The position numbers and the translations under genes were made by a program. A stretch of 64,000 bases of DNA from Azolla caroliniana (lineage: Eukaryota > Plantae > Polypodiophyta): contig JBHGNT010000017.1 in the NCBI GenBank assembly GCA_043228905.1, positions 14,694,001 through 14,758,000 of the forward strand, given 5' to 3'. Position 1 is the stretch's first letter. Each line of letters opens with the position of its first letter. Shown piece by piece: positions 4,870 through 64,000 of this stretch. The notes below the pieces were generated by a model that saw only the letters and a list, made by a program, of their open reading frames with translations, did not search any database and was not told where the DNA came from.

Positions 4870-5355
4870 ATCATATATTTGACAACACTTTCCATGATCA
4901 TGATTTCAATGGGAAGTGACCCCATCTCAAGAAGTGGGAGGGGTTTATGGTGTTTGTTTCTTGACTTGGAGAAACTTTGTAAGAAAATTTTGATTTTGGA
5001 CATTTTCAAACTCTTTCCAAGGGGACTTAGGGATGCTACCTTCCCATCCTTCCATCCCATAGAGAGCACTAGTGTCACCTAAGTGTCGAAATGGTATTTT
5101 TTGAGGAACCAACACTTAATTCTCCAAATGCATAATATACTCTTTTTCCCAGGGCTAGCGAATAACACATTCATTCCATCTATTATTTAAACATAAAGAC
5201 CAAGGTAAGCTTTCTACCATTTCAAGTGGCTCATTATTATTTGCATGGTTTATCCATTTTTGGGCTCTAGACAAGCATAATCTTTGTTTAGAGCTATTGA
5301 CACTATCTTAGTATGCATGCAAAATTCTTCCAATGCCCTCATAAACTTTTGCGCA
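4870..5355 (-). mobile_element. LINE (non-LTR) RT 3' fragment
   Basis: Continues the LINE at 22714-25379, with ~85 bp shared by both segments. Degenerate RT C-terminal coding sequence on the minus strand. Confidence 0.6.
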
Positions 5356-8283
5356 TCGGCTACGTCGATTTCGAACAGAGGTACGATCTTCGGATTATCC
5401 TGCAAGTATTGATCTACCTCTTCATCTGCTAATCCGTCCAGCATATTGACGCATTCGGCATATAGGGGTGTCAATTCCTTCCCGGTACACGTCCGTGGTT
5501 GTGTCGGTACCCGTACTTTTGCTTTTCCTTGCCGGAAGGTGATTATATTCTTCCTCCAGTTTTGTTTAATGTGCGCCGTTTTCAACCATGGCCGCCCCAA
5601 CAATAGTGGGTAAGCTCCTTGTGCCTGCAGTTGTAGCACTACTGCCGAGATGCAAAATGTGTGGCCACCGATCGTTACATCCAAATCTCGTATCAAGCCG
5701 GTCGGTCGCATTGAGCTTGTATCCGCCATCCGCAGCCAGAACGGGCATGGTTCCCACTCTTGGATTCCCAAGGTTTTGCACGTTCGGAGGCTAATCACAT
5801 TGACGCCGGATCCTCCATCTATTACTGTTCCAGGTAACTCCTTTCCCTTCACAATGGTTGTGATCGCCGGACTATTTGTGTCTACTACCGCCGGTCCCTC
5901 CTCCGGATTTGAGAAGAATGTTGGAGCCGGTGGTGTTTCTCCTGCCGTCCTGCCTGTCTTGAGTCCTTCTGTGAATCTGGGCACTAGCTGCAAGAGCCAT
6001 CCTAATGGCAGCGTGATTTGGCATTCCCGCAATGCTTGCCAGGTCGCATTTTCGAGCTGACTGCCATCGGCGAGCTCTTCGGTATTTTCCTTTTGCTATG
6101 CAAGCTCTGCCATGTTTTGTGCATTCGCCTTTTTTACCCATTCTGTTGCCTGCTTGCGGATGGCCTCTTGCACCTCCCATTCCGTCTCCTTACCCTTCGA
6201 TCTTGTGGTCACCTGTTGCAGGTCTACGACTTCGGCAACTACCATATTCACCTCTGGTCGTTTATCATAGCTCTTTGCTAGGCATTGATTACTATAATGT
6301 CCTTCTTGTCGGCAATAGTAGCAATATGCTTTCCGGGAGGTGCTGGATTCGGCATTGTTTCCTACTCCCGGTGGAGGACCTGCGGTAACGGCGGGGCTTT
6401 GATCCGGTTGGCTACTTGAGGCGCCCTTCTCCGGTTCCCGTAGGTGACCCCTTTTGTTGAAATGGCGTTTCTTTTTGTTCCGATACTCTTGACGGGGCTG
6501 GTCATCATGTCTGTCGTAGGCTTCCCATCGTTGGTTGTAACCGGGGGATTGGTCCCGATTGTATCTTTCATACTGTCCATTATACTCCCGGTACCGATCA
6601 TATCTCTCATACCGGTCAGGGTTGTCCCTATACCGGACATCCTGTGCTGGTCGGCATTGCTCTTCTCACCTCCAACTTTCTTCTTCCTCCTCCTTGGTAC
6701 TCCGTGGTTCGATTTGCAGAACCGGTGGTGCTTGGCGATTCAACAAATTGTACTCGCACTGCTCCATTGTGTGGTTCCTGGAATGGCACAGTAGACATTG
6801 CGACCGCATGGTACATTCTAGTGCTGAGTGTCCAGCATTTAGGCATGTTGTGCATTGAATAGCTTGTCGAAACCGGAGATCCTCATCAGTTGGTAACGCT
6901 CGTTGGAGTGCTCCCATTGTTAGCCAAGAGCTTGTTTTCTCCATTTCTCTAACCCAGTCGATGACCTGGTCGACGATACTTGTGCGAAAGTCGATGACTA
7001 TGCATACCGTACGTAGAGGTTCCCGGAGCGCGGCTAAGAATATAGCCTATGTTTCTTCCTTCAAAGGTGCTCGGGTAAGCTGACTGTGCATCCATTGAAA
7101 CCGGATGACAAACTGTAGAATGCTCTCCCCAAGGTTCTGCCGGATGGTATAAAATAGGTCCACCATTTCTCTCTGGTCCACCTCCTTCTGAAAGAAGTGC
7201 AAGAATTTAGCTTTCAGGTCCACAAAGGTGGTGATGGTGCCGGGGTCCTGCGTCCGGTGCCATCTGGTGGTCAGTCCTTCCAATGTCACGCCAAATTCGG
7301 TTATCTTAGATCGTTCCTCTTCGGCTGCGGTTAACTGTTGTGACACATGGTTCGCCTCCCATGTTTTTTGAAAAGCGTGAACATGAGCCTCCGCGTCCGG
7401 GTCATCCCTATACTTGGGGTACTGGAACGGCATGTCATCGTCCGGTGTTGGTGCGCAGGCTGGCGGTGTCGGTGGTCTTTCCTGCTCTTTCGTCGACGTC
7501 GGAAGTCGTTGTTGGTCCTCTGTCGGAGTCGGAGGTCTTTGCCGGTCCTCCTTCGGTGTTGCCAGCTCGACTTCCGGTGTCGGAGGTCTTTCTTTGTCCT
7601 CTTCCGTCTCCGAAGGTTGCTCCACGTCTAGTGCCGGAGGTTCCCGGTCTGACAATTCTGGTTCCGGTGTCGGTAATGTATCCGACTCCTCGTCCTGTGG
7701 TCCTTCCGGGGTGTCGTTACTGCTACGATAGTTCGTGTGCGCGTTGTAACCCCCTTCCGAATCCGATTCCAGCGCCGAAAATGCTTCGGATTCGCGGGCT
7801 CCTCCGGCCAAGGCCTGGAGAAGGGATTCCGCTTCCCGGAGACTGCTTAAGTTGCTTCCTTCGTCCGGGTAGGCGTTTTGTTGCAGACGGAGCGACTCCT
7901 CCGCCACTTTCAGGATAACTTTGGAAAATGGTCGATCCGATCAGATTTCTTCTGCCACTTGGTGGAAAGCCTCTCACCACCTTCGTCGTTCAACAAGTTG
8001 ACTTGCTCTCTCCGTAACTGGGTCGTCCGTTGGCCTAGTCATCCATTCCCGCCGTTGTTCACTGCGATTGTGCAGGAATCGTGGTCGCCAAAAACTATGT
8101 TAATCCTTAGGGCCGGACAACAGCCTAACACAGGGTGTCCACTTAAGACACTTCACCAAAGGGTGTTACAGCGAGATAACTTACGACACAACGCTTAATT
8201 GGACCTTAATCGGTTACTTAGTAATACGTCATTAACACGCGTAAGATATACAATAAGCACAGAACGGTGAACAATACTTAGTG
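5356..8283 (-). mobile_element. Ty3/gypsy 5' half: LTR end (8283-8098), PBS, gag with zinc knuckles, aspartic protease
   Basis: LTR end ...ggattaaca followed by PBS-like tttttggcgaccac. Gag ORF 7047-7907. CTTCLNAGHSALEC and CLLCHSRNHTMEQC knuckles in 6666-6944. Protease VIDGGSGVNVI...LLGRPWL in 5250-6032. Confidence 0.9.
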
Positions 8284-10042
8284 ATTAAACAAAACTGGAG
8301 GAAGAATATAATCACCTTCCAGCGGGGAAAAGCAAAAGTAAGGGTACCAACACAACCATAGATGGGTACCGAGAAGGAATTGACACCCCTATATGCTGAA
8401 TGCGTCAATATGCTGGACAGATTAGCAGACGAAGAGGTAGACCAATACTTGCAGGATAATCCGAAGATCGTACCTCTGTTCGAAATCGACGTAGCCGAAG
8501 CCGTATCACCATACATACTGCCACCGGACAGAGCCGACGAGGAACCAAATAAAGAAGTGATCCGGGAGCTACGGCAAGCACAAGAGGCGTTGGAAAGAGA
8601 AATGGTCGTATCGCAACGGGTTAAAGCATCCCAACTACGGAAGAGGCAAGAGCGGTGCAAATCGCCAAGGAAATGACTGCGGAGAACAAAACGGCAATGA
8701 TTACACTTCTCAAAGAATTTCGGGACGTGTTTGCCTGGTCTTACGAGGATATGCGAGGGCTCGATCCTCAGCTATATCAGCATCAAATACATTTGATCAA
8801 AGACGCCAAACCGGTAGCACAGCGACGGTACTGAATGAATCCAAATTACGCCGCCAAAGTCAAGGAGGAAATCGACAAGTTGTTGAGGGTTGGCTTTATC
8901 TGCCCAGTAAAGAAATCTACATGGCTGAGCCCAATAGTAGTCGTACCAAAGAAAAACGGAAAATTTAGAGTTTGTGTTGACTACCGTAAGCTTAACGCGG
9001 CGACGGTAACAAATGCATTCCCACTCCCATTTACAGATGGAGTTTTAGACGTAGTCACCGGCCATGAGGTATACAATTTCTTAGACGGATTCAGCGGATA
9101 CAACCAGATCCGAATGCACCCCGATGACCAGGAGAAAACGGCTTTCGTCACCGAATGGGGAGTGTTTGTTGCCGTAGTAATGATGTTCGGACTAAAAACG
9201 GCGCCGGCAACGTTCCAGAGGATCATCATGGAAATCTTTGGAGAATTCATACCGGCATTCATGCAGGTGTTTCTGGATGACTTTGTCGTCTATAGCCGGG
9301 AAGGAGATCACTTTCAGCACCTCCGACTGTGTCTAGAGAAATGTCGGGCTTATCGGCTAAGCTTGAATCCGGCAAAGTGTGTATTCGGAGTGTCAAGCGG
9401 GGCGCTATTAGGACACATTGTGAGCAAGGAAGGAATTGCCATGGACCCGGACAAAGTAAAAGCAATCTTAGAGGCACCGGCACTAACAACGGCCAAAGCA
9501 TTAAGCCGTTTCTTAGGCCAAATCCGGTGGCATAGCCGAATGCTCCGGTATCTGGCGAACCTAGCTACACCGCTGCATGATGCGGTACACTGAACACCGT
9601 TCCAGTGGACCGACACCAAAGACAAGGCGTACCGGGCACTCAAACTACTATTGTCGCAAGTGCCGGTAGTGCAACCCCCGGATTGGGCTAAGGAGTTTCA
9701 TGTGTTCGTGGATGCGTCCGACATTGCAATCGGAATCGCGCTGATGCAACTTACGGAGCCAAGGTGGTACCGACCTGTATATTACGCAAGCCAAAAGTTA
9801 TCCCAAGCCGAACGAAATTATTCCACCACGGAAAGGGAAGCTTTGGGCATGATCTACAGCGTGACAAAATTCAAACATTATTTGCTGGGAAGGAAATTTT
9901 CCTTCCATGTACGTCATTCGGCACTCCTCTATTTAGTTTCCAAAGTGTCACTAACCGGTAAGTTGGCACGGTGGACATTACTGTTGCAGGAATTTGAGTT
10001 TGAAATATTCCACCGACCCGGCATACAGCACGCAGTAGTAGA
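8284..10042 (+). pseudogene. Ty3/gypsy pol: RT and RNase H (frameshifts and stops)
   Basis: WLSPIVVVPKKNGKFRVCVDYRKLN, LDGFSGYNQI, MFGLKTAPATFQR, VFLDD, FVDASDIAIG, NYSTTEREAL, ARWTLLLQEF. Confidence 0.95.
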
Positions 10043-10597
10043 GGGTAAAAGCATGCGAGTGGAAACACTATTATAGCTAATTAGCTACTAAAATGGCCAT
10101 AGCTAATTAGCTATTTGTTTAGCTAGTGTTTTTTATGGGAAAATCAAATATTTGAAAAACTAATTTATGAAAAAACTCAAATATTTGAACTTCTGTTTCA
10201 GACGTAGTGGAACTTGGGGAATATCACCATCATCTAAGGTCGACTTCAATGTCATCAATTTCCTGTTTAGCCTAAGTCTGATTTTGAACGCAGATGGAGT
10301 ACTCAGAGCACGAACGCAGACATAGCTCCCGCAACAGCAAAAAATCGACATTGCAGATTGAGAGCTACAACACAGAACCCGCTCGATCATCGTCCAGGTA
10401 TGTTTCAGTTACAGAAACCCCAAACATTTGTTTTTTCTTTTTGACTACTGTCTGAACTTTGGTGCCGATTCATATTTCCCCAAAATCGAATAGGGCGAAG
10501 TCCTTGGAGTCCCATACAAGGATGTCTCGCAAATCGGGGAGTAGCAACAGGTGTGTTTATATTACTTTTTTTGTGTGTAATCCTGTCTTTAGTGATG

Positions 10598-11070
10598 ATT
10601 GGGGTTTCTGATTGAAATTTCTGATTAGGGTTTTTGTTTATAAATTGCTTATTAGAATTTCTGATTAGGGTTTGTGATTGAAATTTCTGATTAGGGTTTG
10701 TGATTGAAATTTCTGATTAGGGTTTTTGATTATAAATTTCTGATTAGAATTTCTTAATAGGGTTTCTGGTTACAAATTTTGATTACAAATTAGAATTTCT
10801 GAATAGGGTTTTTGTTTATAAATTTCTGCTTAGGATTTCTGATTAGGGTTTGTGATTGAAATTTTTTATTAGGGTTTCTGATTGAAATTTCTGATTAGGG
10901 TTTTTTATTATAAATTTCTGATTAGAATTTCTGAATAAGGTTTCTGGTTACAAACTTCTGATTACAGATTTTGATTAGGGTTTCTGATTTCAAACTTCTG
11001 ATTACAGATTTTGATTAGGGTTTCTGATTTCAAATTTCTGAATACAAATTATGATTAGGGTTTCTGATTT
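10598..11070 (+). repeat. Telomere-like / telobox-containing tandem array (GATTAGGGTTT(C/T/G)TGATT..., ~26-39 bp units)
   Basis: About a dozen TAGGGTTT cores inside a GT...AG intron (10550-11175). Confidence 0.8.
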
Positions 11071-12039
11071 GCTAAGTTAAAGATTTTGCACCATTTTTGT
11101 TGTTGTTGATTGGGGTTTTTGATTCTCACATATTCTGATTTTGCACTATTTCTGATTTCTGAAATGATATTTCAGATGGCTCATTCCTCCGTATACGAGA
11201 GTGCTAAACTTCGCAAAATTTTGCGAGACAAAGGAGGACTTCCACAACACCTATGGTCTGTCACTCGAGGGTGTTGACCCTGCTGTCCTAAGTGATAAAT
11301 TGATCAGTGATATAGACTGGATGACAGTATATACAGTGCCTAGAGCAAAGTTACTTCTGATGTTACAACAATTAGAAATAAGATTCAGGTAACTATTGTT
11401 TTGCTGGTATGTGATTGTGTTATAAATAACGGGTAAAATGTGCTAATCAAGCATTATCTGGAATAGGTTGCGCAACAGGAGCTTGAATTAGAGGGGCCAC
11501 TGGATCCCCAACGTAAAATAGAACTGCAAATAGAGATCCAGGTTCTTTCAATGAACCTGGACCTTCTAGGTGTAAATACTGTTGCAGATTACAATTTGGA
11601 TAAGCTTCAAGTAAGTTAACGATTCCTGAGCAAAGTTGGTGTATCTTTCAACAACAAGAATAATTAATCGGTAAATTTCTCTGTTGCGTTGAAGGAACAA
11701 TACATTCATCAAGAACAGGTAGTTAGCTGCCTTAAGAAGAAGCTACATTTTGTGGAGGGAATGGTAAGGACCAGACAGGATTTGGACCTGAACATTCTTG
11801 CTCCCTTACCAAATGAAGTAGAACCAGAAAATGATTTATTGACAGTTCAAGCACGTTGCATCGCTTGCGGGTTAGGTGTGGAGGACAAAACTGCGTCTTT
11901 GTTGGTTCACCTACAACCATGAAACCACACATACCATCTGCTTTGTTTTCAACATGCTTGTCGAATTGTTGCATTCTGTTTGGGAGATTGCAGTACAACT
12001 CTACCAAATGAGTGGAGAAAACTAACAGGTATACCATAC

Positions 12040-13770
12040 TGTAGCTAATAAGCTTAGTCTTTTCTAATTAGCTATCCTACTAGCTAATTAGCTACTGGCA
12101 GCTAATGAGCTACTAGCTAATTAGCTATCCTAGTAGCTAATTAGCTATGGTACTAGCTAATTAGCTAGTACCATAGTTGTGTAAAAAAGCTAAATAGCTA
12201 TCCTACTAGCTAATTAGCCACTGGCAACTAATTAGTTATCCTAGTAACTAATTAGCTACAGCCATAGTTGTGTAAAGTAGCTAATAAGCTATCCTAGTAG
12301 CTAATTAGCTATGGTACTAGCTAATTAGCTAGTACCATAGTTGTGTAAAAAAGCTAATTAGCTATCCTACTAGCTAATTAGCTACTCGCAACTAATTAGC
12401 TATCCTACTAGCGAATTAGCTATCCTAGTAGCTAATTAGCTACTGGCAACTAATTAGCTATCCTACTAGCTAATTAGCTATCATAGTAGCTAATTAGCTA
12501 CTGACATAGTTGTGTAAAGTAGCTAATAAGCTATGCTAGTAGCTAATTAGCTACTGGCAGCTAATTAGCTGTCCTAGTAGCTAATAAGCTATCCTAGCTA
12601 CTACATAGTTGAGAAAGTAGCTAATTAGCTTTCATTGTAGCTAATTAGCTATCCTAGCTACCACCATAGTTAGTAAAGTAGCTAATTAGCTATCCTAGCT
12701 ACTACCATAGTTAGTAAAGTAGCTAATTAGCTATCCTAGCTACTACCATAGTAGTGTAAAGTAGCTAATAAGTTATCCTACTAGCTAATTAGCTATCCTA
12801 GTAGCTAATTAGCTATGGTACTAGCTAATTAGCTAGTACCATAGTTGTGTAAAAAAGCTAATTAGCTATCCTACTAGCTAATTAGCCACTGGCAACTAAT
12901 TAGCTATCCTAGTAACTAATTAGCTACTGCCATAGTTGTGTAAAGTAGCTAATAAGCTATCCTAGTAGCTAATTAGCTACTAGCAGCTAATTAGCTATCC
13001 TAGTAGCTAATTAGCTATCCTACTAGCTAATTAGCTATCCTACTAGCTAATTAGCTAGTACCATAGTTGTGTAAAAAAGTTAATTAGCTATCCTACTAGC
13101 TAATTAGCTACTGGCAACTAATTAGCTATCCTAGTAGCTAATTAGCTATCCTACTAGCTAATTAGCTGCTGGCAACTAATTAGCTATCGTACTAGCGAAT
13201 TAGCTATCCTAGTAGCTAATTAGCTACTGGCAACTAATTAGCTATCCTACTAGCTAATTAGCTATCATAGTAGCTAATTAGCTACTGCCATAGTTGTGTA
13301 AAGTAGCTAATAAGCTGTCCTAGTAGCTAATTAGCTACTGGCAGCTAATTAGCTGTCCTAGTAGCTAATAAGCTATCCTAGTTACTACATAGTTGAGAAA
13401 GTAGCTAATTAGCTTTCATTGTAGCTAATTAGCTATCCTAGCTACTACCATAGTTAGTAAAGTAGCTAATTAGCTATCCTAGCTACTACCATAGTTAGTA
13501 AAGTAGCTAATTAGCTATCCTAGCTACTACCATAGTTAGTAAAGTAGCTAATTAGCTATCCTAGCTACTACCATAGTTGAGTAAAGTAGCTAATTAGCTA
13601 TCCTAGCTACTACCATAGTTGAGTAAAGTAGCTAATTAGCTATCCTAACTACTACCATAGTTGAGTAAAGTACCTAATTAGCTATCATACTAGCTAATTA
13701 GCTATCGTACTAGCTAATTAGCTATCCTAGCTTCTACCATAGTTTAGTAAAGTAGCTAATTAGCTATCCT
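12040..13770. repeat. Palindromic satellite (TAGCTAATTAGCTA core, ~20-bp period) filling a cargo-gene intron
   Basis: Dozens of copies of the 14-bp palindrome, with a ~0.78-kb higher-order duplication (12601 vs 13385). Bounded by donor GT at 12029 and acceptor AG at 13793. Confidence 0.95.
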
Positions 13771-14578
13771 AAATAACTGTCATGTTATTGTAGAATCTTG
13801 TGGATTAAGGACGGCACATGATGTGTCTGGTGCTGATGATGCTGCAACAGATGAGGATACTACTGCCAATGTGGCTGAAAGTAAGAGTCCTGCTATCACA
13901 TCTCCTTCAGATCAGCTACACCCTATTCTTTTGGAACAGTGTACTGAATTAGGCAACGATGTGAAATGCCATGAAATAGTGGAAACAACATGTAAAACTG
14001 AGGTTCACAACAACAGTGTTTATGAACACTTGATGCAACATTTCTTCGAGTCTCAAGACCTTGATTCCACTCCACCGAGCCCAACTACTGAAAATGTCCA
14101 AACAGATCCCTCTGTACTTGAAAAGCTAGTTCAAGAAACGGCTGATGTGCAATTAGCTGCTGAGGCGATGGGAAGGTTGTCGGAGGAGGACACACTTGCG
14201 CATTGGGTGAAAGAAGCAAGGCTAAATGGGGAACCAACCAGAAAAAGGCTGAAGAAGGGGCCACGATCGGGAACAAGACCAGTTACTCGGTCAAGGGGCC
14301 CAGACGTAGTGGAGCGAAATACTGTTTAGTTGGATATGATTGTTAGCTTAGGGATTTTGCTAGGGTTTTATGAAGTTTTACTATCCTGTTGGACAAGTAA
14401 AACCTCAGATTGGTTGTTGCTTGATCCACATTATGTAATGGAACTCTATGATGTTTTTCCAAGATAATTTGAAGAGTGTTGTTCTATGACTGAAACTCTT
14501 TGATGTTCAGGATATTGTTTTGTGAGACTATTAGTTACTTTGTGAGTGTGAATATGTTGGTGTTTTCTGATGTTGCAG

Positions 14579-15594
14579 AGTCTAAAGGGTTTGATTCTAT
14601 TGCTCGTAAGGCCAATGGCAGTGTGGATACTGTTGATGTTGCGGCATGTTTAAAGGGCCCCATCTTGAAAGTAGATGTAGCAACTGACACAAGTGATCTG
14701 GTCACACAAGTTGATCAAGCATGTAGCACGGATGACTTGGTGTTGCAGGTAGATGCAACATGTAGCACGGATGACTTGGTGTTGCAGGTAGATGCAGCAT
14801 GTGATACCAGTGGACTGATATCGAGCAGATCAGTAGCTACATGCACTGAGGTAATCCAAGGATTGATAACTAAGTCGACAAAACAAGAGCACCAGAATGT
14901 GAAGCTAGGCCCAACACAGTCGACTAGGGGTTTAAAGAGGAAAAGGACACCAGTTGTGTCAGCCGAACCTGAACTGATTGAGATTGATCGTATCCTACCA
15001 AAAAATGGTGTAACAGCGGCTCAGTTTCAGGAATGGAAACCTAAACCACTAGAAGTCGAAAGAAGAGCCTTGATCTTGGAGCTTGATAAAGTCTTGATGA
15101 GTGTGAGATATATGCAGCCAAGGAGGGACGCAAATCAGTTTCTAGAGTGGGCTGTGGAATACTTTGATTTGTTTATTTGGAGTGAAAAACCAAAATCAGA
15201 TGTGTGGAAGTGTTTGGCAAGATTCTTCCCAAAATGGCGAAGTCGTTTTAAAGGTCAATGGGCACGAGAAAATTGTGAGCAAATGGAAGCTGCAAGATTC
15301 AAGAGACTTTCTGATTTTTGGGCTACTTGGCCTGAATATAATGCCGACAATACATTGATTTTGGATACAGAACATTTCCGACACTACTTCAATATTCGGA
15401 GATGCTGTCTCATTCTACCCGAGGAAATGCCTGAACAGTACCTGGTGCAAATAGTGAGCTGCCAACTAGGTGCATGGTTGTGGACTCCATACCGAGCTCA
15501 ATATGCGGATAATATATGTAGACTCGTTCCACTGACTAGCAAGAGCTTAGCTGTTTATAGGAGATTTGTAGACATTTCCAATGGTAATTTATAA
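14579..15594 (+). CDS. FCP1/NIF (HAD-superfamily) phosphatase-like domain exon with degenerate catalytic motif
   Basis: ORF 14500-15594 with acceptor gttgcag at 14578. RALILELDKVL corresponds to the LVLDLDETL motif; PRRDANQFLEWAVEYFDLFIWS, WARENC, KRLSDFW and NTLILD follow NIF-domain order. N-terminal 13-aa repeats (VDAACSTDDLVLQ-like). Confidence 0.65.
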
Positions 15595-15941
15595 ATATGT
15601 AAAGAGATGGCATTATTCAATGAAGAATTTAATTACTTGTTCCCACTGTACTTATCTACTGTGTAATTTGAGGAATATGTTGCAGATTGTTGATTTCATG
15701 CTATTGATGACTATTTAGCTATTGACAGCTAATTAGCTGCATTTGTACAGCTAATTAGCTACTGATGACTATTTCGCTATAACTTATAACTTAAAACTTA
15801 ACAAAAAAGACATGATTTTATTGAGAAAGAAGCACAGAAAGCAGACTGTATACAAGAAATTGATTCCAAACGAATTTATTTAACTGTTTTCGCGAAATAC
15901 ATGTTTGTTTTACAAGAGAACATGGTAAGTGCTACTTGTAG

Positions 15942-17783
15942 CTACAAATTCCATGGCATACTATTGTAAATACATTCATACACATTAGCACCAACAGTGT
16001 ATAAACCAGAGCAGCTATTGTATTTTGACATTGGGACGTTGATGCACCTGACCAAATGAGAGTACATATACGTCGTTGGTTTGTCTTCTAACAGCCTGTA
16101 CACATATTCGTAGTCATCTAGTTTTGCATAAAAAATGCCTTCGATGTAGAATGTCCCGGCAGATACAAAATTTCCCCATGCATCTACAATATTCTGCCTT
16201 GCACACTGTTTACTAACCGTGCACTTTAATATATAGAAATCAGCACCCTCTGAATTGCCTTCTTCAGCATTTACAGCGAAGTTATCCCCAACGTTCAGGA
16301 CATCACTCAAAGTATCTCCAAGTCCCTCATATGTGAAGTCAGCATTCTGCCCTGTTTCTCCATCAACTGCTTCCTTATCATTCAGAGTGTGATACTCCCA
16401 ATTCTGAATGTATGCTTTGTTTAGACAATATCTCCAATTTCCCTGCACACAATGGAAGCAAAAACAAGTCAATTCTCTAACCACAATACAATGACCATCC
16501 AACCTGGAATAACCGCGAACAGCATGCAGAGATCGCAATTCGGGAATTCCTTGGCACTCCCAGGTCTTCTCCCTATTTACTTCATCTATCTTCACTTCCC
16601 AAAATTCACGTTTGATATCTCGGACTTGCGAGGAATAAACACCTGTGGCACTCGTTGACATATTTGTTCTTAAAAATTCAACTACATGTGATGCACAATT
16701 CATGTGCACACCATCTGTCTTTAGTTGTTCATGGGTAAGTGCCCGCTTTATAACAGCCCCTGCACCATCATGTTCACCTTTACCATGGCCAGACCCAAAA
16801 AAATTCCATCTCATCTCCAAACCTGTTATAGCAGGATACCTCCCCACAAAATAAAATGGACGTCGAGCCTTGAATTGTGACGCAGCTCCGTCAGACCAGA
16901 CCCAATGTTGAGTAAGCTCCAAACGTTGAGCTAATAACCACTGCCAATGTAACTTAAAACAGTGTTGGACGAACAAGGTATCATGCTTCTTATCATCGGA
17001 AATAAAGAAATGAATTACTTTTTTAACATCACCTGAAACTCGAAAATATGTTATGTGCACAAAAATGGTTACCTGAACTGAACACCAATGCATAGATTGA
17101 ATTTCATTCTGCTGCTTGAAAGTATAATTCTCTACGAAATCTACTACTGAGACTACTACATCATTTGGGAAATCAGATATGCAAGTCTTAAACTGATGGG
17201 CCTGCCATGAATAAATGAAGTTGTGTTTAATGAACTTTCCTAGAGATACTACAAACAGAGACACCAAATCCCTTGGTTTAAGCATCTTCCGAACTAGATC
17301 CTTTCTTTTACACACCTTTCCTTCGAAATTGGTGTTCACTGACTCAAATAACTTCACAGAGATCAATATTTCACTACTCAATTCATTTGGACACCACCTA
17401 AATCTAGTAGGGCCACAATCTTGACATAAACCCATGACACATTTATGAATATGGAAGATAGCGTCAGTTTCTCTCAGACACAATATTGAATCTAATAAAT
17501 AACTCATGGAAGAGATAACGTGCTCAGATGATTTACACTCCTCTTGCGGGCTTGATCGACAGATTGGGCACCCACATGTGCAAACTGTATTAGTTAGGGA
17601 TGCGCTATGGTGACGTAGTAGATTAACAGAGTCCTTCAGAAAACCCATCTGTACATGGTAAATGCAACAACATGTGTATCGATCCTTTAAGCGTCTCACA
17701 AAGTGTGGCTTAAGAGACTCGAATGTTCGTAGTTGAACTTTGATAGTTGGATGCATTCGTTTGAACCTAATAAATAAATCGAC
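15942..17783 (-). CDS. Sola2-like DDD transposase (main exon, ~610 aa)
   Basis: Open 604-aa ORF, extended in frame to an acceptor at 17784/17785. Motifs DFVENY, WSDGAASQFK, GSGHGKGEHDGAGAVIKR; Cys-rich CCCIYH, CxCxCxxC and CFCFHC regions. Confidence 0.85.
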   Translation of the reverse strand, partial: VDLFIRFKRMHPTIKVQLRTFESLKPHFVRRLKDRYTCCCIYHVQMGFLKDSVNLLRHHSASLTNTVCTCGCPICRSSPQEECKSSEHVISSMSYLLDSILCLRETDAIFHIHKCVMGLCQDCGPTRFRWCPNELSSEILISVKLFESVNTNFEGKVCKRKDLVRKMLKPRDLVSLFVVSLGKFIKHNFIYSWQAHQFKTCISDFPNDVVVSVVDFVENYTFKQQNEIQSMHWCSVQVTIFVHITYFRVSGDVKKVIHFFISDDKKHDTLFVQHCFKLHWQWLLAQRLELTQHWVWSDGAASQFKARRPFYFVGRYPAITGLEMRWNFFGSGHGKGEHDGAGAVIKRALTHEQLKTDGVHMNCASHVVEFLRTNMSTSATGVYSSQVRDIKREFWEVKIDEVNREKTWECQGIPELRSLHAVRGYSRLDGHCIVVRELTCFCFHCVQGNWRYCLNKAYIQNWEYHTLNDKEAVDGETGQNADFTYEGLGDTLSDVLNVGDNFAVNAEEGNSEGADFYILKCTVSKQCARQNIVDAWGNFVSAGTFYIEGIFYAKLDDYEYVYRLLEDKPTTYMYSHLVRCINVPMSKYNSCSGLYTVGANVYECIYNSMPWNL

Positions 17784-17809
17784 CTGCGTAATAAAGGGGA
17801 ATTAGTTAT

Positions 17810-19020
17810 TCTCGTAACTAGCTAACTATCCTAGTAGCTAATTAGCTATTCTAGTAGCTAGTTAGCTATTCTAGTAGCTAATTAGCTATCATGGTAGCTA
17901 ATTAGCTGTCCTAGTAGCTAATTAGCTATCATGGTAGCTAATTAGCTGTCCTAGTAGCTAATTAGTTGTCCTAGTAGCTAATTAGCTATCATGGTAGCTA
18001 ATTAGCTGTCGTAGTAGCTAATTAGCTATCATGGTAGCTAATTAGCTATTCTAGTAGCTAATTAGCTATCATGGTAGCTAATTAGCTGTCGTAGTAGCTA
18101 ATTAGCTATCATGGTAGCTAATTAGCTGTCCTAGTAGCTAATTAGTTGTCCTAGTAGCTAATTAGCTATCATGGTAGCTAATTAGCTGCTCTAGTAGCTA
18201 ATTAGCTATCATGGTGGCTAATTAGCTTTCCTAGTAACTAATTAGCTATCATGGTAGCTAATTAGTTGGTCTAGTAGCTAATTAGCTATCATGGTAGCTA
18301 ATTAGCTGGTCTAGTAGCTAATTAGCTATAATGGTGGCTAATTAGCTTTCCTAGTAACTAATTAGCTATCATGGTAGCTAATTAGTTGGTCTAGTAGCTA
18401 ATTAGCTATCATGGTAGCTAATTAGCTATCATGGTGGCTAATTAGTTGTCCTAGTAACTAATTAGCTATCATGGTAGCTAATTAGCTGGTCTAGTAGCTA
18501 ATTAGCTATAATGGTGGCTAATTAGCTATCATGGTAGCTAATTAGCTATCATGGTGGCTAATTAGATGTCCTAGTAACTAATTAGCTATCATGGTAGCTA
18601 ATTAGTTGGTCTAGTAGCTAATTAGCTATAATGGTGGCTAATTAGCTATCCTAACTAATTAGCTATCATGGTAGCAAATTAGCTGGTCTAGTAGCTAATT
18701 AGCTATCACGGTGGCTAATTAGCTATCCTAGTAAGCTAATTAGCTATCATGGTAGCTAATTAGCTATCATGGTAGCTAATTAGCTTTCCTAGTAGCTAAT
18801 TAGCTGGTAATAACGAAATAACAAACTAGCTACCATGATAGCTAACTAGCTTCCAGTACAACTAATTATCTGGTAGTACCTAAATTAGCTATTGAGAATA
18901 GCTAATTAGCTATCATGGTAGTAGCTATTGAGAGTAGCCAGTTACCTATGTAGTAGCTATCATAGTAGCTAATTAGCTATCATGGTAGCTAATTAGCTTT
19001 CCTAGTAGCTAATTAGCTGG
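17810..19020. repeat. Palindromic satellite with strict 20-bp period (TAGCTAATTAGCTA plus TCATGG- or TCCTAG-type spacer) upstream of the transposase main exon
   Basis: About 50 units in register (17820-18800); alternating spacers give a 40-bp higher-order unit. Confidence 0.95.
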
Positions 19021-19036
19021 TAATAACGAAACCTTT

Positions 19037-19402
19037 TTAAGTAACATCACTATTAAGTAACATCATTAGACTAGACCTTTTTAAGACAAGATCATCTTCT
19101 GACCTGCTCATGGATACGAAACTATTACGAAGATTATTTACTAAAATAGATGATATGTTTGCATTAAGACCATCACAATCAACTAAGTCCTTTATCGATG
19201 GATCATTACATATTCCATAAAGTACTACCTTCTTTTCTTCATTGCTGATGTGCTTGGTTTGAACATTGAAATAGTCTACAACCTTTCTCTCTATGATGGT
19301 AGTCGCATTACTTACATTCTCAGCTAAACTATCCTTACCTTTACTGAGTGTGGCTTTCGTATCCTTCAACAATTGACGATGTTTCCTTTTTTTTCTGCCC
19401 AA
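19037..19402 (-). CDS. Probable N-terminal exon of the transposase (basic NLS-like start), truncated
   Basis: 121-aa ORF starting GRKKRKHR, on the same strand as and upstream of the transposase. It does not splice in phase to the main exon as assembled. Confidence 0.45.
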   Translation of the reverse strand: MGRKKRKHRQLLKDTKATLSKGKDSLAENVSNATTIIERKVVDYFNVQTKHISNEEKKVVLYGICNDPSIKDLVDCDGLNANISSILVNNLRNSFVSMSRSEDDLVLKRSSLMMLLNSDVT

Positions 19403-19839
19403 TAGTTTCGTATGGCTTGTTGTGTCCTGATAACATCATCCCTATCCTTATGATCATTGAGGGGTAATTCTAAACACCCTTCTTCCCCTTCCATTTGGTT
19501 GGACATGTTAAAACCCTAAATTTCCAGAAAAAAAAACAAGTATTAAAGATGGCTATGGGCAACAACAATACACAAAAATATTCCACACAATACACAAGAT
19601 TAGACACAACAATACACAAGATAATCAATAGACAGAAAAGTTATTGCAATCCAAGACCGAACAGTAGAGGATTTCACTCCGTTGGATCCAACAGTTGAGG
19701 AGGCGATCCAAGACCGACCAATGGCAACAACTGAGTGTAGAATGTTGCCGTTGGATGAGTGAACTCCGTCAAATCGAAATGTGGAAGCAATCCGGGACTG
19801 GACAATAGTGGCAACTGAGTATAGAATGATGGCAATGGA

Positions 19840-20495
19840 GGAGAGAACCCCGTCAGATTGAACAGTTACCGATGATGCTTGAAACGCACATAGAAGGCAC
19901 TTGAGAATAGAGTGGCATAGAGAAGAGAACCCCGTCAGATTGAACAGTTACCAATGATGCTTGAAACGCATAGTAGCGGCCCCTGAGTGAGAGTGGAAAA
20001 GAGAAGAGAACCCCGTCAGATTGAATAGCTCTTTGATTATGCTTGGAACGCACAGTAGCAGCCCCTGAGTGTAGAGTGGCAAAGAGAAGAGAACCCCGTC
20101 AGATTGAACAGCTCTTTGATGATGCTTGGAACGCACAGCAGCGGCCCCTGAGTGTAGAGTGGCACAGAGAAGAGAACCCCCTCAGATTGAACAACTCTTT
20201 GATGATGCTTGGAACGCACAGTAATGGCCCCTGAGTGTAGAGTGGCACAGAGAAGAGAACCCCCTCAGATTGAACAGCTCTTTGATGATGCTTGGAATGC
20301 ACAGTAATGGCCCCTGAGTGTAGAGTGGCACAGAGAAGAGAACCCCGTCAGATTGAACAGCTCTTTGATGATGCTTGGAATGCACAGTAGTGGCCCCTGA
20401 GTGTAGAGTGTCACAGAGAAGAGAACCCCGTCAGATTGAGCAGCTCTTTGATGATGCTTGGAACGCACAGTAGCGGCCCCTCAGTGTAGAGTGGC
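19840..20495. repeat. 83-bp tandem repeat (~8 copies)
   Basis: Unit GAGAAGAGAACCCCGTCAGATTGAACAGCTCTTTGATGATGCTTGGAACGCACAGTAGCGGCCCCTGAGTGTAGAGTGGCACA, decaying leftwards. Confidence 0.95.
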
Positions 20496-20848
20496 GGCAG
20501 GTGGACTCGATAGGGTTTAGCAACAGTGGTAGCAACTAACCCACAGTACTCAACTAGAGATGGCCTACGTGATGTGGCAAAGGATCATGCATAATGGACC
20601 TAGGAATTCGATATATAATTTATGGTACACATTTATGGTGCACACATCAATTTATGTTGCACATTTATGGCACTCATTTACATATGTAATTAAAACACTC
20701 TAGTATTTTCAATGGTAGTTTTTTGCATACTTAATTTATTAATGATGGCTTTTTACTAAAATGACTATTTATCAATGGTAGCTTTTTGCATAGCTAATTA
20801 GCTATGTCAAGGACATAGCTAATTGTTTCCACTCGTATGCTTTCACCC

Positions 20849-22445
20849 TAGACTATTTGAGCCGGTTAGATTCCGGCGAGACTGGTGACGGAGTCCCGGA
20901 CGAGTTTCCGGATGCTAAGCTATTTCGAGTCACCGCGGAAACGGCAACAGATGAAACGGTGGCACAAGAAGAAAAGTGGCTAACGAATATGCAACAATTT
21001 CTGAGCACCGGATTGCCTCCGGAGGAGATGACCTGGGACGAGAGGAAACGCCTGGCGGTACAAAGCCAGCACTTCTGTTTAGTACGGGACACGCTATACC
21101 ACAAAGGCGCGGACGGTATATGGCGACTGGCGGTGCGCAGTGACGAGAAGGATATAATACTACGAGAAGCACACTGCGGAGTCGCCAGAGGCCATTACGC
21201 CGGAGATGCTACAGCAAGGAAGATATGGCAAAGTGGCCTATGGTGGCCGACAACATTGAAAGACGCAGTCCAGTACGCTAAAGAATGTGATCTATGTTAG
21301 CGAATGGGCCAGCCAACCGAACAAGCTAGGATACCGCACCAGCCGGTACTGTCGTTAGAACCATTTCAGAAATGGGTCTGGATTTTGTGGGTCCATTCAA
21401 ACCATCAGTAATGAGAACCGACAACCGGTATGTGATCGTAGCTACGGATTACTACACGAAATGGGTAGAAGCCAAAGCCTTTCGTGACAACATCGCAGCA
21501 TCGACAGCGAAATTCTTGTATGAATACATCTGGTGCAGGTATGGATGCCCGATCGAGCTAATAAGTGACCAAGGAGGGCACTTCCTCGGCCAAATGGTGG
21601 AAAGCTTGACGTCGTTCTATGTCGTGGTGCATAAACGGAGCACGCCATACTATCCGCAAGTAAACGGGTTAGCCGAGTCGACGAATAAAACGCTACAGAA
21701 TATCCTTCGGAAAGTCATTAACGAAAACCGGACAGACTAGAATACGAAGTTGCACAGTGCCCTATGGGCTTACCGGACAGCTTACAAAACAAGAATCCAA
21801 ACCACACCGTTCCGGCTAGCATTCGGATTGGAGGTTGTCATGCCAGTAAAGTTCCAGGTTCCGAGGTTACGGATTCAGATTAGGAAACGGTTAAACGAGA
21901 AGGAATCGGAGGCAATTCGGTTAGCAGCTCTGTGTGAACTAGAAGAACACTGACTAGCAAGTATCATGCACCTGGAACTGGAGCAGCGGCGAAGCAGGGC
22001 GTTTGTGGATCGCCACCGAAAAGGAAATGAAAAGATGTTTGGAATCGGCAAGCCGGTACTAGTGTTCCAGACCCGGATGGGAAAGATGCTGGGGAAACTG
22101 CGGTTTCGGTGGACCGGACCGTACTGGATCACACGTGAGTTCAATGGATCCTACCAGTTAGGGACACTTGCCGGCGAGGTCCTGGGTAAGTGGGTCAACA
22201 GATTTCGACTAAAGCCATACAAGGGACCCATGCCAAGGAACCCATTTGAACAAGGAAAGGCCGATGTCAAACCAGATACCGGCATACCGGAAACAACGGC
22301 AACCCGATTAGCAATCGGCAACAACGAAGCCGGTAAGGGGGACAAAGAGCCGGCACACGGGTTGGATAAGAGGTTGGCAAACCGTCACGAGGCTGGCAAG
22401 ATTCCTCATTCGGGTAAGGGTCTGTTAGGACCGGAGACAAATTAA
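20849..22445 (+). pseudogene. Ty3/gypsy integrase region (continuation of pol)
   Basis: AHCGVARGHY...WWPT...CDLC zinc finger, GLDFVGPF, TKWVEA, ISDQGGHF, YYPQVNGLAE, WTGPY (GPY/F); several stops. Confidence 0.95.
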
Positions 22446-25413: not shown

Positions 25414-28100
25414 GAAGAAGTGTGAACAAGTCATTTGATTGAAACAGTGTTCGATTGAAATTTGGGAATATGAGCATAGATGTAATAAATAGCATATAAT
25501 TAAACTCTCTCTCTCTATCTATCTATCTATCTATCTCTCTAACGTTGGCCCCACTATAAGATGAAAATGCCAAAATATATCAAAGCACATCTTACTTTCC
25601 GATGAGCCTAAACACTTCGTCAAACTTGCTCACGCAAGTTAGGTGTTGAGGTAGCGTCATGCCATCATCACCCTAATATGAAGATATGTAAGCTACATGC
25701 AATGAAACCTTTGGTGGATGATGAATATCACTTACTTCTTGTATGCTCAACGTATAAGGTAATTTGCAAGAATTAGACAAGCATGATAATTTAAGTGTCA
25801 TATTCAAATCCCTAAAGCAAGGCAATTGCATTTGTGCGCGCATTATTTTCACACACAGAGTTTTTACTAGAGAGTAGTAACCCCCTTTCTTAGGAAGGAG
25901 TCGCATGCAAGACGATATATGTATTTGGTCACATAGGCCTAAGTTAACCACCTCGTACACGATAAAAAATCTATTCTTTTCCCTTATAGGAAGTGGTGCA
26001 AAATTATGTGCAAAACCTCTAAGAGAAAGTTAAATTATTTGCAATTTGGTCAAGCCTATACTCTTATGATGTGTGTGTGTGTGTGTGTGTGTGATAGTAA
26101 AAGCACACAATTATTGTATATAAAACCCACTTGTTACAACTTCTTAGTCTCCTATGTATGTGTGCATGTGTGTCTCAAAAGACGAGACACCTAAGATGTA
26201 ATCTCTTGTTTGGTTTTATAGGCCATTTTGTCCTCTTGAAAGACGTATATATCCATAGATTGACCCATGCGTGATATTCGTGAAATGCCCCAAGAATATT
26301 ACAAAACCATTCATTTTAAATTTATATAAAAAATTTATTTAATTCACTAAAACATTAATTAAATCACTAAGACAATAATTAATTCACTAATACATTGCTT
26401 AATTCATTAAAATTTAATTAATTCATTAATAATACATTAACAATAAATTAATTAGGGTTTCTGCTAAACTTAGGGTGTCAGTGAAACTGTGAGTTTGTAG
26501 CCGAGAACAGGATGTAGGATTAGCGTAGAGCATGAGAGGGAGGTGAGGATGCATGCCAAAAAGAAGAAATACGGTCAAAATTAGGATTTTGATTGAAACT
26601 AGGGTTTCAGCCAAAACCCTAATTTTTTGGCCGAGAACAGGATGCAAAGGGAGGCGAGGGTGTAAGCACACACAGAGAACAGTGTGAGGCCCCTCGCTTG
26701 CTGCTTGCTATTCACTCACTCACACAATTTGTTTTTCCAAAGAAAACAATTATTTTTTCGAAAAAAGAAAAGAAAATGAATACATTTAAATGTATTCATA
26801 TTCGCATTCCTAGCATTAGTGGGGCTTGCCCTATGAATGCGAATATGTCAATCTATGTATATATCAAGATGTTTTGGGAGATTATATGGAGAAATCTTAA
26901 GAGAAAGTTAAATTATATGCAATTTTGTTAAAGCTTGAAGAGGAGGCCTTTGATTCAGTACATACAATATACTAGCGCTAGGTAACCTAATTATTTAATT
27001 TATCAAGAGTTAACATGATTTAGATCGTTTAAAAAAGAAAAAAAAACTTTATCTTCTCATAAGGTCATCCCATGCTATGTATTTTCATATCATGTGTTTT
27101 TTATATAGCTTTAACTTTGTTATGGTTTTTATGAATATGGTGTTCCTAATATGGGATTGTGAAAGTGAATGGCCCATTTCATACTTACACCTAAAATAAA
27201 GTGCATTTGAAGTTGAAAGGTGACATAAAAATATATATAGAAGGGCAAGTTTGACCGTAAATACATATCCTTAGGTGTAGTGTAAGCAAAGTATTCCTCA
27301 ACATACAACCTTGGGTTGTTTGATACCATGAAAACCATTGGGGCTATAATTGATATTGCACCAAAGTTTTCTCTACAGGAGGGTAATTTATGATATTTAA
27401 CGTTGTATTATGAGTATGTATAATATTTTCCCAAAGACCACAATCATTTGCCAGTCTTATAACTCTACAATAAAATTCATAGCAACCTTTCTAATGAAGA
27501 ATCGAAAATGTTATTGTTTTGCAATGCAACTCTAACTCTTCAATACATGCATTCTTGAATTGAAAATTCGGTTGTTGTATTTCAATCTTCAATATATGTG
27601 TGCTTTCAATGCATGTATTTGTTCTTATTTATTTTAATGTAAAGCATGACATGTTGCATTGCAATCGTCACCGATTGCATCATAGATCCCCCCCAAGGAG
27701 GATGGATGTATATATATATGTAGGTCAACACACATATATCGCATTAAAGGTATTCATGTTTCTTGTGCAAGAAGTAAGTCGGGAATAGGTGTGTGAGACT
27801 AGGACATGGAAGACGAAAGGTGACACTATTCGAGAAAATAATAAATCGGGGGGCGATTTGAACAAGAGAGGACTACTCCTTGATGTTTGGACGACGAAGG
27901 TAAGTAACGTTTGGAAATTCGAAGAAAACAAAGAGTGGAGGAGGGTGGGGCACATAACACAAACAAATACCTTCCATTTGCTTGACCATTAGTTTTTGCA
28001 TACTTGAAGAATTAGATTGAGGGAGGTGATTAAGGAGAGTGATTAAGGAAGGTGATTAAGGAGTAGTACTTCTGAATTCTAAGGAGAAAGCTTAATTAAG

Positions 28101-29069
28101 ATGGGCACCTTGATAGGCCATGTGGCACCTGGGGCAGGGTTTATCCTCATAGGTCTTTGGCACCTTCTCAACACAATCAAGGCCTATGCCCGACAAGGTG
28201 CTCGGGGTTTCAAATCGCGGCCGTGGTTCCCGGCTGCGCCGCCCGGACATCCCGGCCGGCGCGCCGAGCTCTACCTCATCATCTTGGGCTCGCTCCTCTC
28301 GATCGCGTCCGAGCTCTTCATTTTTCCACACCAGCACCACCCCTTCGTCTCACACACCGACCTCTCGATCCCTGCCCAACACCTCAATAACTTCGAGCAC
28401 TCGACCATCTCCCTCTTCTTGCTCATCTATGCGTCCGTGGCCGCACTCGAGGACGGAGGCGCACTCAATCTTGCCGATGGGTTTGTCCACTCCCTCGGCT
28501 CACTCGCATTTGCGGTCGAGCTCTTGCTCTTCCATCTCCACTCGGCCGACCACATGGGCCTCGAGGGCCACTACCACTGGCTCCTCCAATTGATCGTCGC
28601 GGCATGCCTCGTGTTCACACTTGTAGAGATTCACGTGCCCCGGAGTTTCCTTGCATCCCTTGGACGGGCGACTTCGCTCGTCTTCCAAGGGATTTGGTTC
28701 ATTCAAATGGGGCTAGTGCTTTGGGTCCCAAGGTTTACGCCCACTGGATGCGCCATGCAAGACGCGGGTTACCACCGTGTGGTGCGGTGCGAAGGTGAGG
28801 GTGCCTCGCATCGTGCCAAGGCACTCGCGACTTTGCAATTCGCTTGGTACCTCGCCGCTCTTTGTGCCGCACTCATCACTTGGATCACGCTCACGCTTCG
28901 TGGCCCACATGCCGAGATGTCCAAGTCTTATGAGGCCCTCCGCTTCCACCGCGATCCCGATGATGACGACGAGTCCGACACAAGTGCCTCCTTTAAGTTG
29001 GCGCTTCCAAGAGCCACATCCCTAGAGGGCCTCCATGGAGGCAAATCCATGGTCAACCTTCCTAGGTAA
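28101..29069 (+). CDS. TMEM45/DUF716-family multi-pass membrane protein (intronless, 322 aa)
   Basis: MGTLIGHVAPGAGF..GLWHL, HLNNFEHSTIS, LFHLHSADHMGLEGHYHWLLQ, FQGIWF, RAKALATLQF; GC-rich intact ORF. Confidence 0.93.
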   Translation: MGTLIGHVAPGAGFILIGLWHLLNTIKAYARQGARGFKSRPWFPAAPPGHPGRRAELYLIILGSLLSIASELFIFPHQHHPFVSHTDLSIPAQHLNNFEHSTISLFLLIYASVAALEDGGALNLADGFVHSLGSLAFAVELLLFHLHSADHMGLEGHYHWLLQLIVAACLVFTLVEIHVPRSFLASLGRATSLVFQGIWFIQMGLVLWVPRFTPTGCAMQDAGYHRVVRCEGEGASHRAKALATLQFAWYLAALCAALITWITLTLRGPHAEMSKSYEALRFHRDPDDDDESDTSASFKLALPRATSLEGLHGGKSMVNLPR

Positions 29070-58506: not shown

Positions 58507-59646
58507 AAATGTTGTGTTTTTGAGCAAGGTGTGCAACTCTTATCAATATGATCCAAAAATTCTTGAGTGAAAACATCCATTTGAATATCATGGTAGACAA
58601 TCTCAAGACAATTTGAATCCATTGACATCTTAAAAACTTTGGTTGCTTGTGGTACTGACAACCCCAAACAAATATGCTTTTGATGTTTCAAGGTATGCCA
58701 CCAAGTCAAGATGCAAGCTACGAATGCCAATTTTGTATTGGCAATGGCACAAGATGTGGAACCACCTCTATTGCAAAAAATTTGTCTATTTTTTTAAATA
58801 AGAACAAAGTACAAGTTTTAAATGTATCACATTTCCCCTTTCAATGAAATGTAAATACCATTAACCATAAGATAATATTCTTATATATCTAGTCAATTTA
58901 TGTATAGTATGTAAGTTAAAGCATGAGCGCTAGTGGCCACATCTCTTAGTTGTTAGTGCAAGTGAGATGCTATATAAAGGGTATCTCATCCTAGGTGTGG
59001 ATGAGAAAAAAAAGTACTTATGTATGGGGGAGAATACAAGTGCAACGTGGCTCACAAATTCTCAAGAGGGTTGAAATCCTAGGTTCAATTGTTGGAGCTA
59101 TTCAGGGGTTCACGGGTTCAAAATCTAGCTCGATAAAACAATCTAAATACAAACCAACTTTTCACGGACATGACAATCTAAATACAATCTAACTTCACAG
59201 ACATGACAACGATCATGTCAAGATCCAAACTCGTGACCTCTTGTGTTATAATGGAGTGTTATGTGTTAACCAACATGTCCAATATACAGTCATATACATG
59301 ATTGTTCCTTGCAGCTTTAAGCTAGCATCATGAGCATAATTGCTCCATTGTATTATTCACACTTGGCACATGCATGCGTATATACATGCTCTAGTGTATC
59401 ACATGCATGCCACAGGCATGCAAGCCGCTTAGTACAAATATTTGAGTTCACCTTGAATGAATTCAAGGTGAACAACACCAGTTAATAATACTTGCCCTTA
59501 GCTTGTCAATTGTGTCTTTGTAACGCTTTTAGGCTTGTTGATCACATCCTTGTAGTATCCTTGTAGCTTTGATTCTTCTATCCTTAATAGTTTCTTCACC
59601 TTCCTTTTTCGCTCTCTCCCTCTTCACTAGCCACACATCAAAAGCC

Positions 59647-63625: not shown

Positions 63626-64000
63626 TTTCGCCCACTATGGGGCTCATCAGTGCTAAAATGACCATTAGGGTTGGATAGGTTTATATAAGGAGTTTTAGGA
63701 GAGGGTTTAGAGAAATGACAATAGGGAGTGGGGGTGTGTGCTTATGGATATGATTTGGAAAGGGGAAGATTTGGAGAAGAAGGAAAAAGATACTATGAGC
63801 TTTAATGATCCTAAGTCACATTAAAGCTCATAGTATCTTTTTCCTTCTTCTCCAAATCTTCCCCTTTCCAAATCATATCCATAAGCACACACCCCCACTC
63901 CCTATTGTCATTTCTCTAAACCCTCTCCTAAAACTCCTTATATAAACCTATCCAACCCTAATGGTCATTTTAGCACTGATGAGCCCCATAGTGGGCGAAA
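63626..64000. repeat. Perfect inverted repeat (arms of at least 182 bp, 11-nt spacer 63808-63818), running off the window
   Basis: 63819-64000 is the exact reverse complement of 63626-63807. Confidence 0.95.

Follow-up and report, generated by a model that had tools for sequence, protein, structure and literature searches.

What is a gene that sets a RING-type finger beside a phosphatase-like NIF domain doing inside a fern transposon? The question is raised by a 64,000-nucleotide stretch of Azolla caroliniana DNA (assembly GCA_043228905.1, contig JBHGNT010000017.1, positions 14,694,001 to 14,758,000; hereafter the window, with positions counted from its first letter), in which a first-pass annotation had described a cargo gene with a RING-H2 finger and two alternative terminal exons. 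We find that RING plus NIF cargo in fern Sola2 elements is a real, conserved and apparently undescribed architecture. Our overall reading, which we believe about as much as we doubt, is that the window gene is a broken copy of a Sola2 accessory gene, and that the protein made by intact members of its family helps the element to propagate.

That the gene was transposon cargo had been proposed from its letters alone, and it does lie inside a complete Sola2-type DNA transposon of 10,806 bp (10043 to 20848), recognized by its terminal inverted repeats (TIRs), 4-bp target-site duplication (TSD), empty site and transposase motifs. The TIRs are 25 bp long and agree at 23 of 25 positions (left, plus strand, 10043 to 10067, beginning GGG; right, minus strand, 20824 to 20848), and TAGA flanks the element on both sides (10039 to 10042 and 20849 to 20852). 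Sola2 termini follow the rule GRG..CYC. The insertion target was a Gypsy pol region, and three DNA contigs (run X8) carry the empty site as a joint from 10039 to 20850. DNA depth was 28,000 to 85,000 in 30 of 30 bins across positions 10000 to 21000; depth so high in every bin indicates a large transposon family. Passages in PMC10741241 and PMC3627910 give a 4-bp TSD as a hallmark of Sola, and one in PMC6786969 reports SOLA elements as more abundant in Azolla.

The main exon of the Sola2 transposase (15942 to 17783) is on the minus strand, convergent with the accessory gene. The open reading frame (ORF) that holds it, 15942 to 17801, agreed motif by motif, by eye, with the Sola2 alignment in additional file 10 of PMC3627910. 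The DDD transposase series was present: C-x-C-x2-H, DFxENY, QxEIQSxHW, ISDD..HD, SDGAxxQFK and FFxxxHGKGxxDGxG. Pfam and PDB searches with this ORF gave no match, and the Sola2 motif assignment thus stands without a profile score. A probable transposase 5' exon (19037 to 19505, minus strand), recognized by its translation and presumably spliced to 17783, has a broken frame in this copy; six DNA contigs carry an extra T behind 19386 that the window copy lacks.

Two runs guessed, not recorded, to be RNA (X18 and X19; one study, from a related organism) contain the GT..AG joints 10397>10494, 10550>11176 and 11388>11467. The accessory gene therefore begins further 5' than had been seen, and is spliced in at least one relative. 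The first-pass annotation had overlooked the exons from about 10160, the deletion and frameshift at 11342 to 11345 and the complete Sola2 element. All exons are on the plus strand. Exon 1 (10160 to 10397, 5' end approximate) holds the likely start, ATG at 10294, and is followed by exon 2 (10494 to 10550), which has joints on both sides, by an exon 3 remnant (11176 to 11388) with a copy-specific internal deletion and frameshift, and by exon 4 (11467 to 11610), a likely coiled coil as judged by eye. Exon 3 matches residues 59 to 100 of the Adiantum gene model P0055 (48%, E 1.6e-9), and the N-terminal match extends to 11344. On either side of 11342/11345 both DNA and RNA contigs diverge into other sequence, ending loose. 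The spliced sequence missing at 11342 to 11345 is about 469 nt, an estimate that assumes that the 1,252-nt contig of X19 also contains the 11342 to 11512 piece, which has the same depth; 469 leaves a remainder of 1 on division by 3, just the shift of frame that was observed. Read from the ATG at 10294, the product of the window copy ends after 132 residues at a stop at 11491. Further downstream, exon 4 is backed by tblastn of P0141 over 11503 to 12012 (E 2e-9). Pfam and PDB searches with the N-terminal domain gave no match. A metagenome scan of 42 candidate stretches yielded one truncated locus, and the named close relatives are all fern proteins, from Adiantum nelumboides, A. capillus-veneris and Ceratopteris richardii.

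The RING exon (11695 to 12028, plus strand) reads CIAC-x18-(TGA)-N-H-T-Y-H-L-L-C-x10-C-L-G-D-C, as had been noticed before, and ends at a phase-1 donor (CAG/GTATAC). Its C3H2C3 ligand set spans 11857 to 11991, with the TGA at 11920 to 11922 leaving the window copy without ligand 3. The suspicion that this stop replaces a Cys codon of the family was borne out: the TGA is private to the window copy, with C at 11922 in 14,050 of 14,108 depth and 15 DNA contigs (TGC), and Cys stands at the site in 7 of 7 homologs. With the upstream deletion and frameshift and this private TGA the window copy is dead, and neither isoform can be encoded by it. A RING-exon profile search among longer proteins gave 66 Adiantum nelumboides models, which are gene predictions and not RNA. 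All eight ligands are complete in four of the seven local relatives and in 23 of these 66 models; the eight-ligand models span two subfamilies at 25 to 35% identity, and many other models splice the RING core out.

Several results weigh against calling this finger a working RING. In relatives it scored below every Pfam cut-off (best E 0.003 to 0.3; 17.5 bits against a cut-off of 27), and the window exon gave no Pfam match at all. PDB matches were weak (E 0.12 or worse), although 12 of 14 were RING E3 ubiquitin ligases, and the structure model was poor (pLDDT, the predicted local distance difference test, 53). The last ligand pair is C-x3/4-C without a Pro, an arrangement that is atypical of canonical E2-binding RINGs. 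The Atlas look-alikes were RING clusters, at 0.92, with only 142 of 256 features in common. The finger is very likely a zinc-binding RING-type domain; that it has E3 ligase activity we favour slightly.

The NIF exon (14579 to 15594, plus strand) encodes a low-complexity linker, a basic patch and, from 15064, a NIF/HAD domain. Its ELDKV, at 15079 to 15093, aligns to motif I of the NIF family, and the Pfam match begins after it (profile positions 35 to 125). The earlier assignment of a NIF-like domain with an ELDKV motif proved sound: PF03031 scored 30.9 bits against a cut-off of 21.8 (E 2.7e-7) and the structure model, with a pLDDT of 92, has the HAD/NIF fold. Its structural matches were 1t9z, which we take to be SCP1 (Z 17.0, root-mean-square deviation 2.7, 146 aligned residues), Tim50 (16.3), UBLCP1 (16.2), CTDNEP1 (15.4) and Fcp1 (14.2), while the best PDB match by sequence was UBLCP1 (E 6e-19, profile).

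The same annotation had compared this domain to the FCP1/SCP/CPL enzymes that carry DxDxT, and this comparison did not survive. In a 48-row alignment the nucleophile column held D in 35 rows, E in 6 and N in 2 with 5 gaps, and the +2 column held N in 28, D in 9, Q in 4 and E in 2 with 5 gaps; the parent clade is therefore DxNG and not DxDxT. The motif III Lys was present in 48 of 48 rows. In a tree of 51 domains, from which rows of fewer than 100 residues were left out, 29 rows formed one clade (support 100/99) that is separate from the Sphagnum and Hibiscus proteins and whose named members are all from ferns. Within the tree the window family has a Ceratopteris family as its sister (100/98), and both have Glu as the nucleophile and, in second place in motif IV, Thr or Ser. 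Their motif I to motif II distance is 32 to 33 residues, compared to 53 to 59 in other fern relatives, about 23 residues shorter. In place of the active signature that marks C-terminal domain (CTD) phosphatases, DxDx(T/V) with a DD motif IV, the window copy has ELDKV and DT. The stretch absent after motif I presumably includes the hairpin that shapes the substrate pockets in SCP-type enzymes, and its absence argues against a reader of the RNA polymerase II (Pol II) CTD.

The proposal that the phosphatase is catalytically dead fared better, the catalytic Asp being absent, although its extension to a Pol II CTD reader is weakened by the DxNG parentage and the loss of about 23 residues. In Fcp1 the nucleophile is Asp170, and its replacement by Asn abolished Thr1-PO4 hydrolysis in an experiment described in part of PMC4436666; since Glu stands at this position here, the ELDKV branch is probably inactive. 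Against this, a passage in PMC13216928 has human Tim50 active despite a non-canonical motif, so an altered motif is no proof of lost activity. We consider loss of phosphatase activity in the ELDKV branch quite probable from its sequence.

LILELDKVL occurs in 18 relatives, many of them near-identical, and DLDKVL in one. Constraint on the NIF core was upheld in one comparison and not in another. Compared with P0223, 6 of 118 core positions are changed and 29 of 203 elsewhere in the exon (p 0.015), but with P0002 the contrast is weaker and not significant (p 0.087), and the single DNA relative shows one synonymous and four non-synonymous changes over 195 nt; the last two results count against constraint.

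The pairing of the two domains is best seen in Adiantum. A NIF profile match lies downstream of the RING in 36 of the 66 models, at about 30% identity to the window family, and precomputed PF03031 is present in 20 of the 66. One model, P0156, joins a C-terminal piece of Sola2 transposase to RING-NIF (E 3e-8). The breadth of the pairing is limited by two results: the RING search among longer proteins gave A. nelumboides only, and the named Ceratopteris NIF models examined had no RING. As a separate observation, the fern transposon NIF clade takes in five Ceratopteris richardii genes (P0020, P0022, P0025, P0195 and P0196) whose annotation is 'FCP1 homology domain-containing' or uncharacterised; these are probably pieces of transposons. 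A Hibiscus syriacus model, P0109 (KAE8667071.1), has an HMG-box, a Ulp1 protease and a NIF domain together, and may be an independent case of NIF beside transposon-type domains in a flowering plant.

How RING and NIF come together depends on the acidic exon between them (13794 to 14329, plus strand), which has a phase-1 acceptor, a basic end and its own stop. As had been claimed, the acceptors TTGTAG/13794 and TTGCAG/14579 are both in phase 1 and both resume with E-S (...KLT-ES-CG and ...KLT-ES-KG), and the acidic tail is indeed acidic, D/E making up 20% of its first three quarters, with 10 K/R among the final 35 residues. The ORF is open for 177 codons, a length reached in 0 of 10,000 shuffles, and the other frames contain 11 and 16 stops. 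The E-S start common to both exons looks like chance as far as the sequences go. Origin of the two exons by duplication was considered and rejected, there being no DNA or protein similarity between the 13794 and 14579 exons. A good internal phase-1 donor, AAA/GTAAGA, is found at 13880, and near the end of the ORF only a weak GC donor at 14297. The four RNA-guessed runs have no contigs over 12010 to 12200 or 13729 to 14110 and no joint at the 14579 acceptor, and give no evidence either way.

The Adiantum models also have, after the RING, an acidic block, some 170 residues long and basic at its end, that resembles the 13794 exon in place, size and composition. At the end of the RING exon 22 models could be scored: 20 enter the acidic block, one (P0055) skips it and one goes elsewhere. 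Among the 38 models that reach the end of the block, 27 splice from a late donor to NIF by several routes, 9 continue in frame past that donor, where P0151 reaches a stop and P0135 joins NIF later, and the remaining 2 end with the block. Two points count against a single fused protein of this plan. The window acidic exon has no detectable homology to the Adiantum acidic block by profile or pairwise comparison (121 of 462 reported shuffles scored as high), and the Adiantum splices are inconsistent, with at least five different joins into NIF, so that adjacency is better shown than fusion.

The strongest rival holds that the two exons are mutually exclusive last exons, giving an acidic nuclear-targeted form and a form that is a dead phospho-CTD reader, as the first-pass annotation had supposed. 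The splice signals speak for it, since both acceptors are in phase 1 with strong AG contexts and the acidic ORF is open to its own stop with no strong phase-1 donor near its end (the 14297 GC being weak), and so do P0055, which skips the acidic block, and the 9 of 38 models that read on past the late donor. However, the 27 of 38 that splice the late donor to NIF argue the other way, the donor at 13880 would permit a chain of RING, short acidic exon and NIF, and the domain, 23 residues shorter after motif I than in its fern relatives, falls in the DxNG clade and not among the CTD phosphatases. What stood of that claim is the phases, acceptors and stop; as an explanation of the gene we regard exclusive last exons as doubtful. 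The layout of RING, acidic ORF with its own stop and NIF exon is conserved, and RING and NIF are likely to be part of one polypeptide. By which route is a matter of tentative preference: the acidic exon may be internal in some transcripts, and we give a little less weight to its being skipped, with the two as alternative last exons.

In the reading we prefer, that of a Sola2 accessory gene, the intact family protein would be nuclear and would consist of the N-terminal domain, a likely coiled coil, the RING-H2-type finger, an acidic linker and NIF. Its RING is predicted to recruit ubiquitination and its NIF domain to act as a catalytically dead binding module, and the protein would be retained by selection on active Sola2 lineages. 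The accessory protein probably serves the element rather than the host.

A second rival keeps this protein but changes its task: the ancestral DxNG domain would have phosphatase activity or would trap substrates, and the target of the protein would be the element's own transposase, which it would turn over or activate, and not host silencing factors. The Asp nucleophile in 35 of the 43 rows with a residue, and the motif III Lys and motif IV Asp kept in most fern members, are in its favour, and a passage in PMC12973397 describes a precedent in MuDR, where MURB binds the MURA transposase. Yet the general acid at Asp+2 is replaced by Asn or Gln in 32 of 43 rows, and the nucleophile was lost more than once (Glu in the window branch and in P0079, Asn in P0053 and P0062). 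We consider this rival rather unlikely.

Less probable still, the NIF exon could be transcribed separately and have an ATG of its own (14503 or 14554), the RING gene ending at 14329. In many relatives (14 proteins) the frame is open 5' of the acceptor from an ATG, and the Ceratopteris models and several Logan/ENA ORFs are NIF-only. But the 28-codon stretch concerned is rich in T, and 13% of shuffles leave it open by chance; like an intron, it varies more than the NIF core does and has a tandem duplication in P0237, and the gap from stop to acceptor is only 249 nt; similar T-rich read-through precedes the NIF exon in several other families (P0211 and P0116; by eye). Finally, a neutral Pack-type capture of host RING and NIF fragments that decay without function, to which the decayed state of the window copy (deletion, stop, broken transposase 5' exon) and the frameshifts in RNA-guessed contigs over NIF would point, is largely refuted and very improbable, given that fern NIF domains form their own deep clade (29 rows, 100/99) apart from the host-type Sphagnum and Hibiscus proteins, that the eight RING ligands and the domain order are retained at about 30% identity, and that the NIF core is more conserved than its flanks.

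The introns of the element are occupied by short tandem repeats. An array of a roughly 20-bp unit with the palindromic core AGCTAATTAGCT fills 12064 to 13772, in the intron of the accessory gene, and a second palindromic 20-bp array lies at 17800 to 19018, in what is presumably the transposase intron. All copies of AGCTAATTAGCT in the window (83 of 83) are inside the Sola2 element, distributed over the two long introns, the gap separating the genes and the regions close to either end. A different 13/40-bp tandem array, like GATTAGGGTTT, lies at 10596 to 11070 within intron 2 of the accessory gene, with no CpG and a CWG observed/expected ratio of 4.7, and a unit of 83 bp is repeated eight times with 92% matches at 19838 to 20495, upstream of the transposase. 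The arrays lend themselves to a speculation by analogy: the N-terminal domain might bind the AGCTAATTAGCT arrays and the RING ubiquitinate host silencing or chromatin proteins at these sites, with alternative splicing adding or removing a dead NIF that picks phosphorylated targets. We hold this anti-silencing scheme to be improbable. If true, an E3 and a pseudophosphatase would have been assembled, independently of VANC, into a strategy of the same kind.

Around the element, Gypsy pol sequence (reverse transcriptase, RNase H, integrase) covers 8835 to 10042 and 20849 to 22445, the Sola2 insertion having divided it. The minus strand has a related gag-protease region at 5250 to 7940, together with an inverted pair of 218 nt at 5353 to 5570 and 8284 to 8501. 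The only clear host gene among those examined is an intact, intronless, GC-rich DUF716 gene at 28083 to 29069 (E 2.7e-48). Further along are an inverted pair of 183 nt (96%, 1.4-kb spacer) at 47175 to 48922, a possible non-autonomous element; a minus-strand Copia-type element at 53268 to 58793 that contains in-frame stops and has a 54-bp repeat close to either end; and, where the window ends (63626 to 64000), a perfect hairpin of 182 nt, possibly an assembly artefact.

Our literature search turned up nothing published on cargo of the RING plus NIF kind, nor on transposons that contain NIF domains, with Repbase and subscription journals, which could describe it, outside the search; it found no accessory gene of a fern DNA transposon, and matches for fern with Sola were genome papers only. 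Plant DNA transposons counter their hosts via accessory genes such as VANC and MURB, of which few kinds are known. Cargo that pairs RING with NIF and is kept in diverged families linked to Sola2, in Adiantum and in the window genome, with related NIF domains in Ceratopteris, is a new architecture; it extends transposon-encoded RING fingers beyond Chapaev and RAG1, and explains many hypothetical fern genes called 'FCP1 homology domain-containing' as likely transposon parts. If the protein acts against silencing, it would offer a testable reason for the success of such elements in very large fern genomes.

Compared with known systems, the element shares with Sola2 its series of transposase motifs, short TIRs and 4-bp TSD. 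Sola2 elements with a second gene have precedent in a section of PMC3627910, where that gene is Fanzor1; the cargo here is instead a gene for RING plus NIF that is spliced and faces the transposase convergently, the introns are filled with palindromic satellite arrays, and the TSD is TAGA where AWWT is reported for amoebozoan elements. The plan of a TIR transposon that carries an accessory gene and has a short motif amplified in tandem within introns, between genes and in non-coding terminal regions recalls VANDAL and VANC as treated in portions of PMC5735166. There, VANC has DUF1985/DUF287 domains and was shown to bind its motif and to demethylate; the likeness here is one of layout. In 10 long Adiantum models and the exon-3 piece, Pfam turned up no DUF1985/DUF287 at E values as high as 1.

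That a DNA transposon encodes a RING finger has a parallel in the N-terminal RING of the Chapaev transposase and RAG1; by passages of PMC4411706, the RING of RAG1 has ubiquitin ligase activity, and that 2015 paper states that no other known transposable elements encode one. In Chapaev and RAG1 the RING is fused to the transposase, but here it sits together with NIF in an accessory gene of its own, and the superfamily is a different one and the host a plant. The NIF domain shares with the PF03031 family (SCP1, CTDNEP1, UBLCP1, Tim50 and Fcp1) its fold (Z 14 to 17) and a Pfam score above the cut-off, and it retains Ser in motif II, Lys in motif III and the first Asp of motif IV. It differs in its motif I, ExDKV, in the change of the second motif IV Asp to Thr, in being about 23 residues shorter and in having DxNG domains as its nearest relatives. 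Tim50 and the fungal NIF-domain pseudophosphatases, covered in part of PMC13216928, likewise have a degenerate DxDx(T/V) with a known or presumed non-catalytic use. Those, however, are host genes, and the NIF domain described here is carried by a transposon and paired with a RING.

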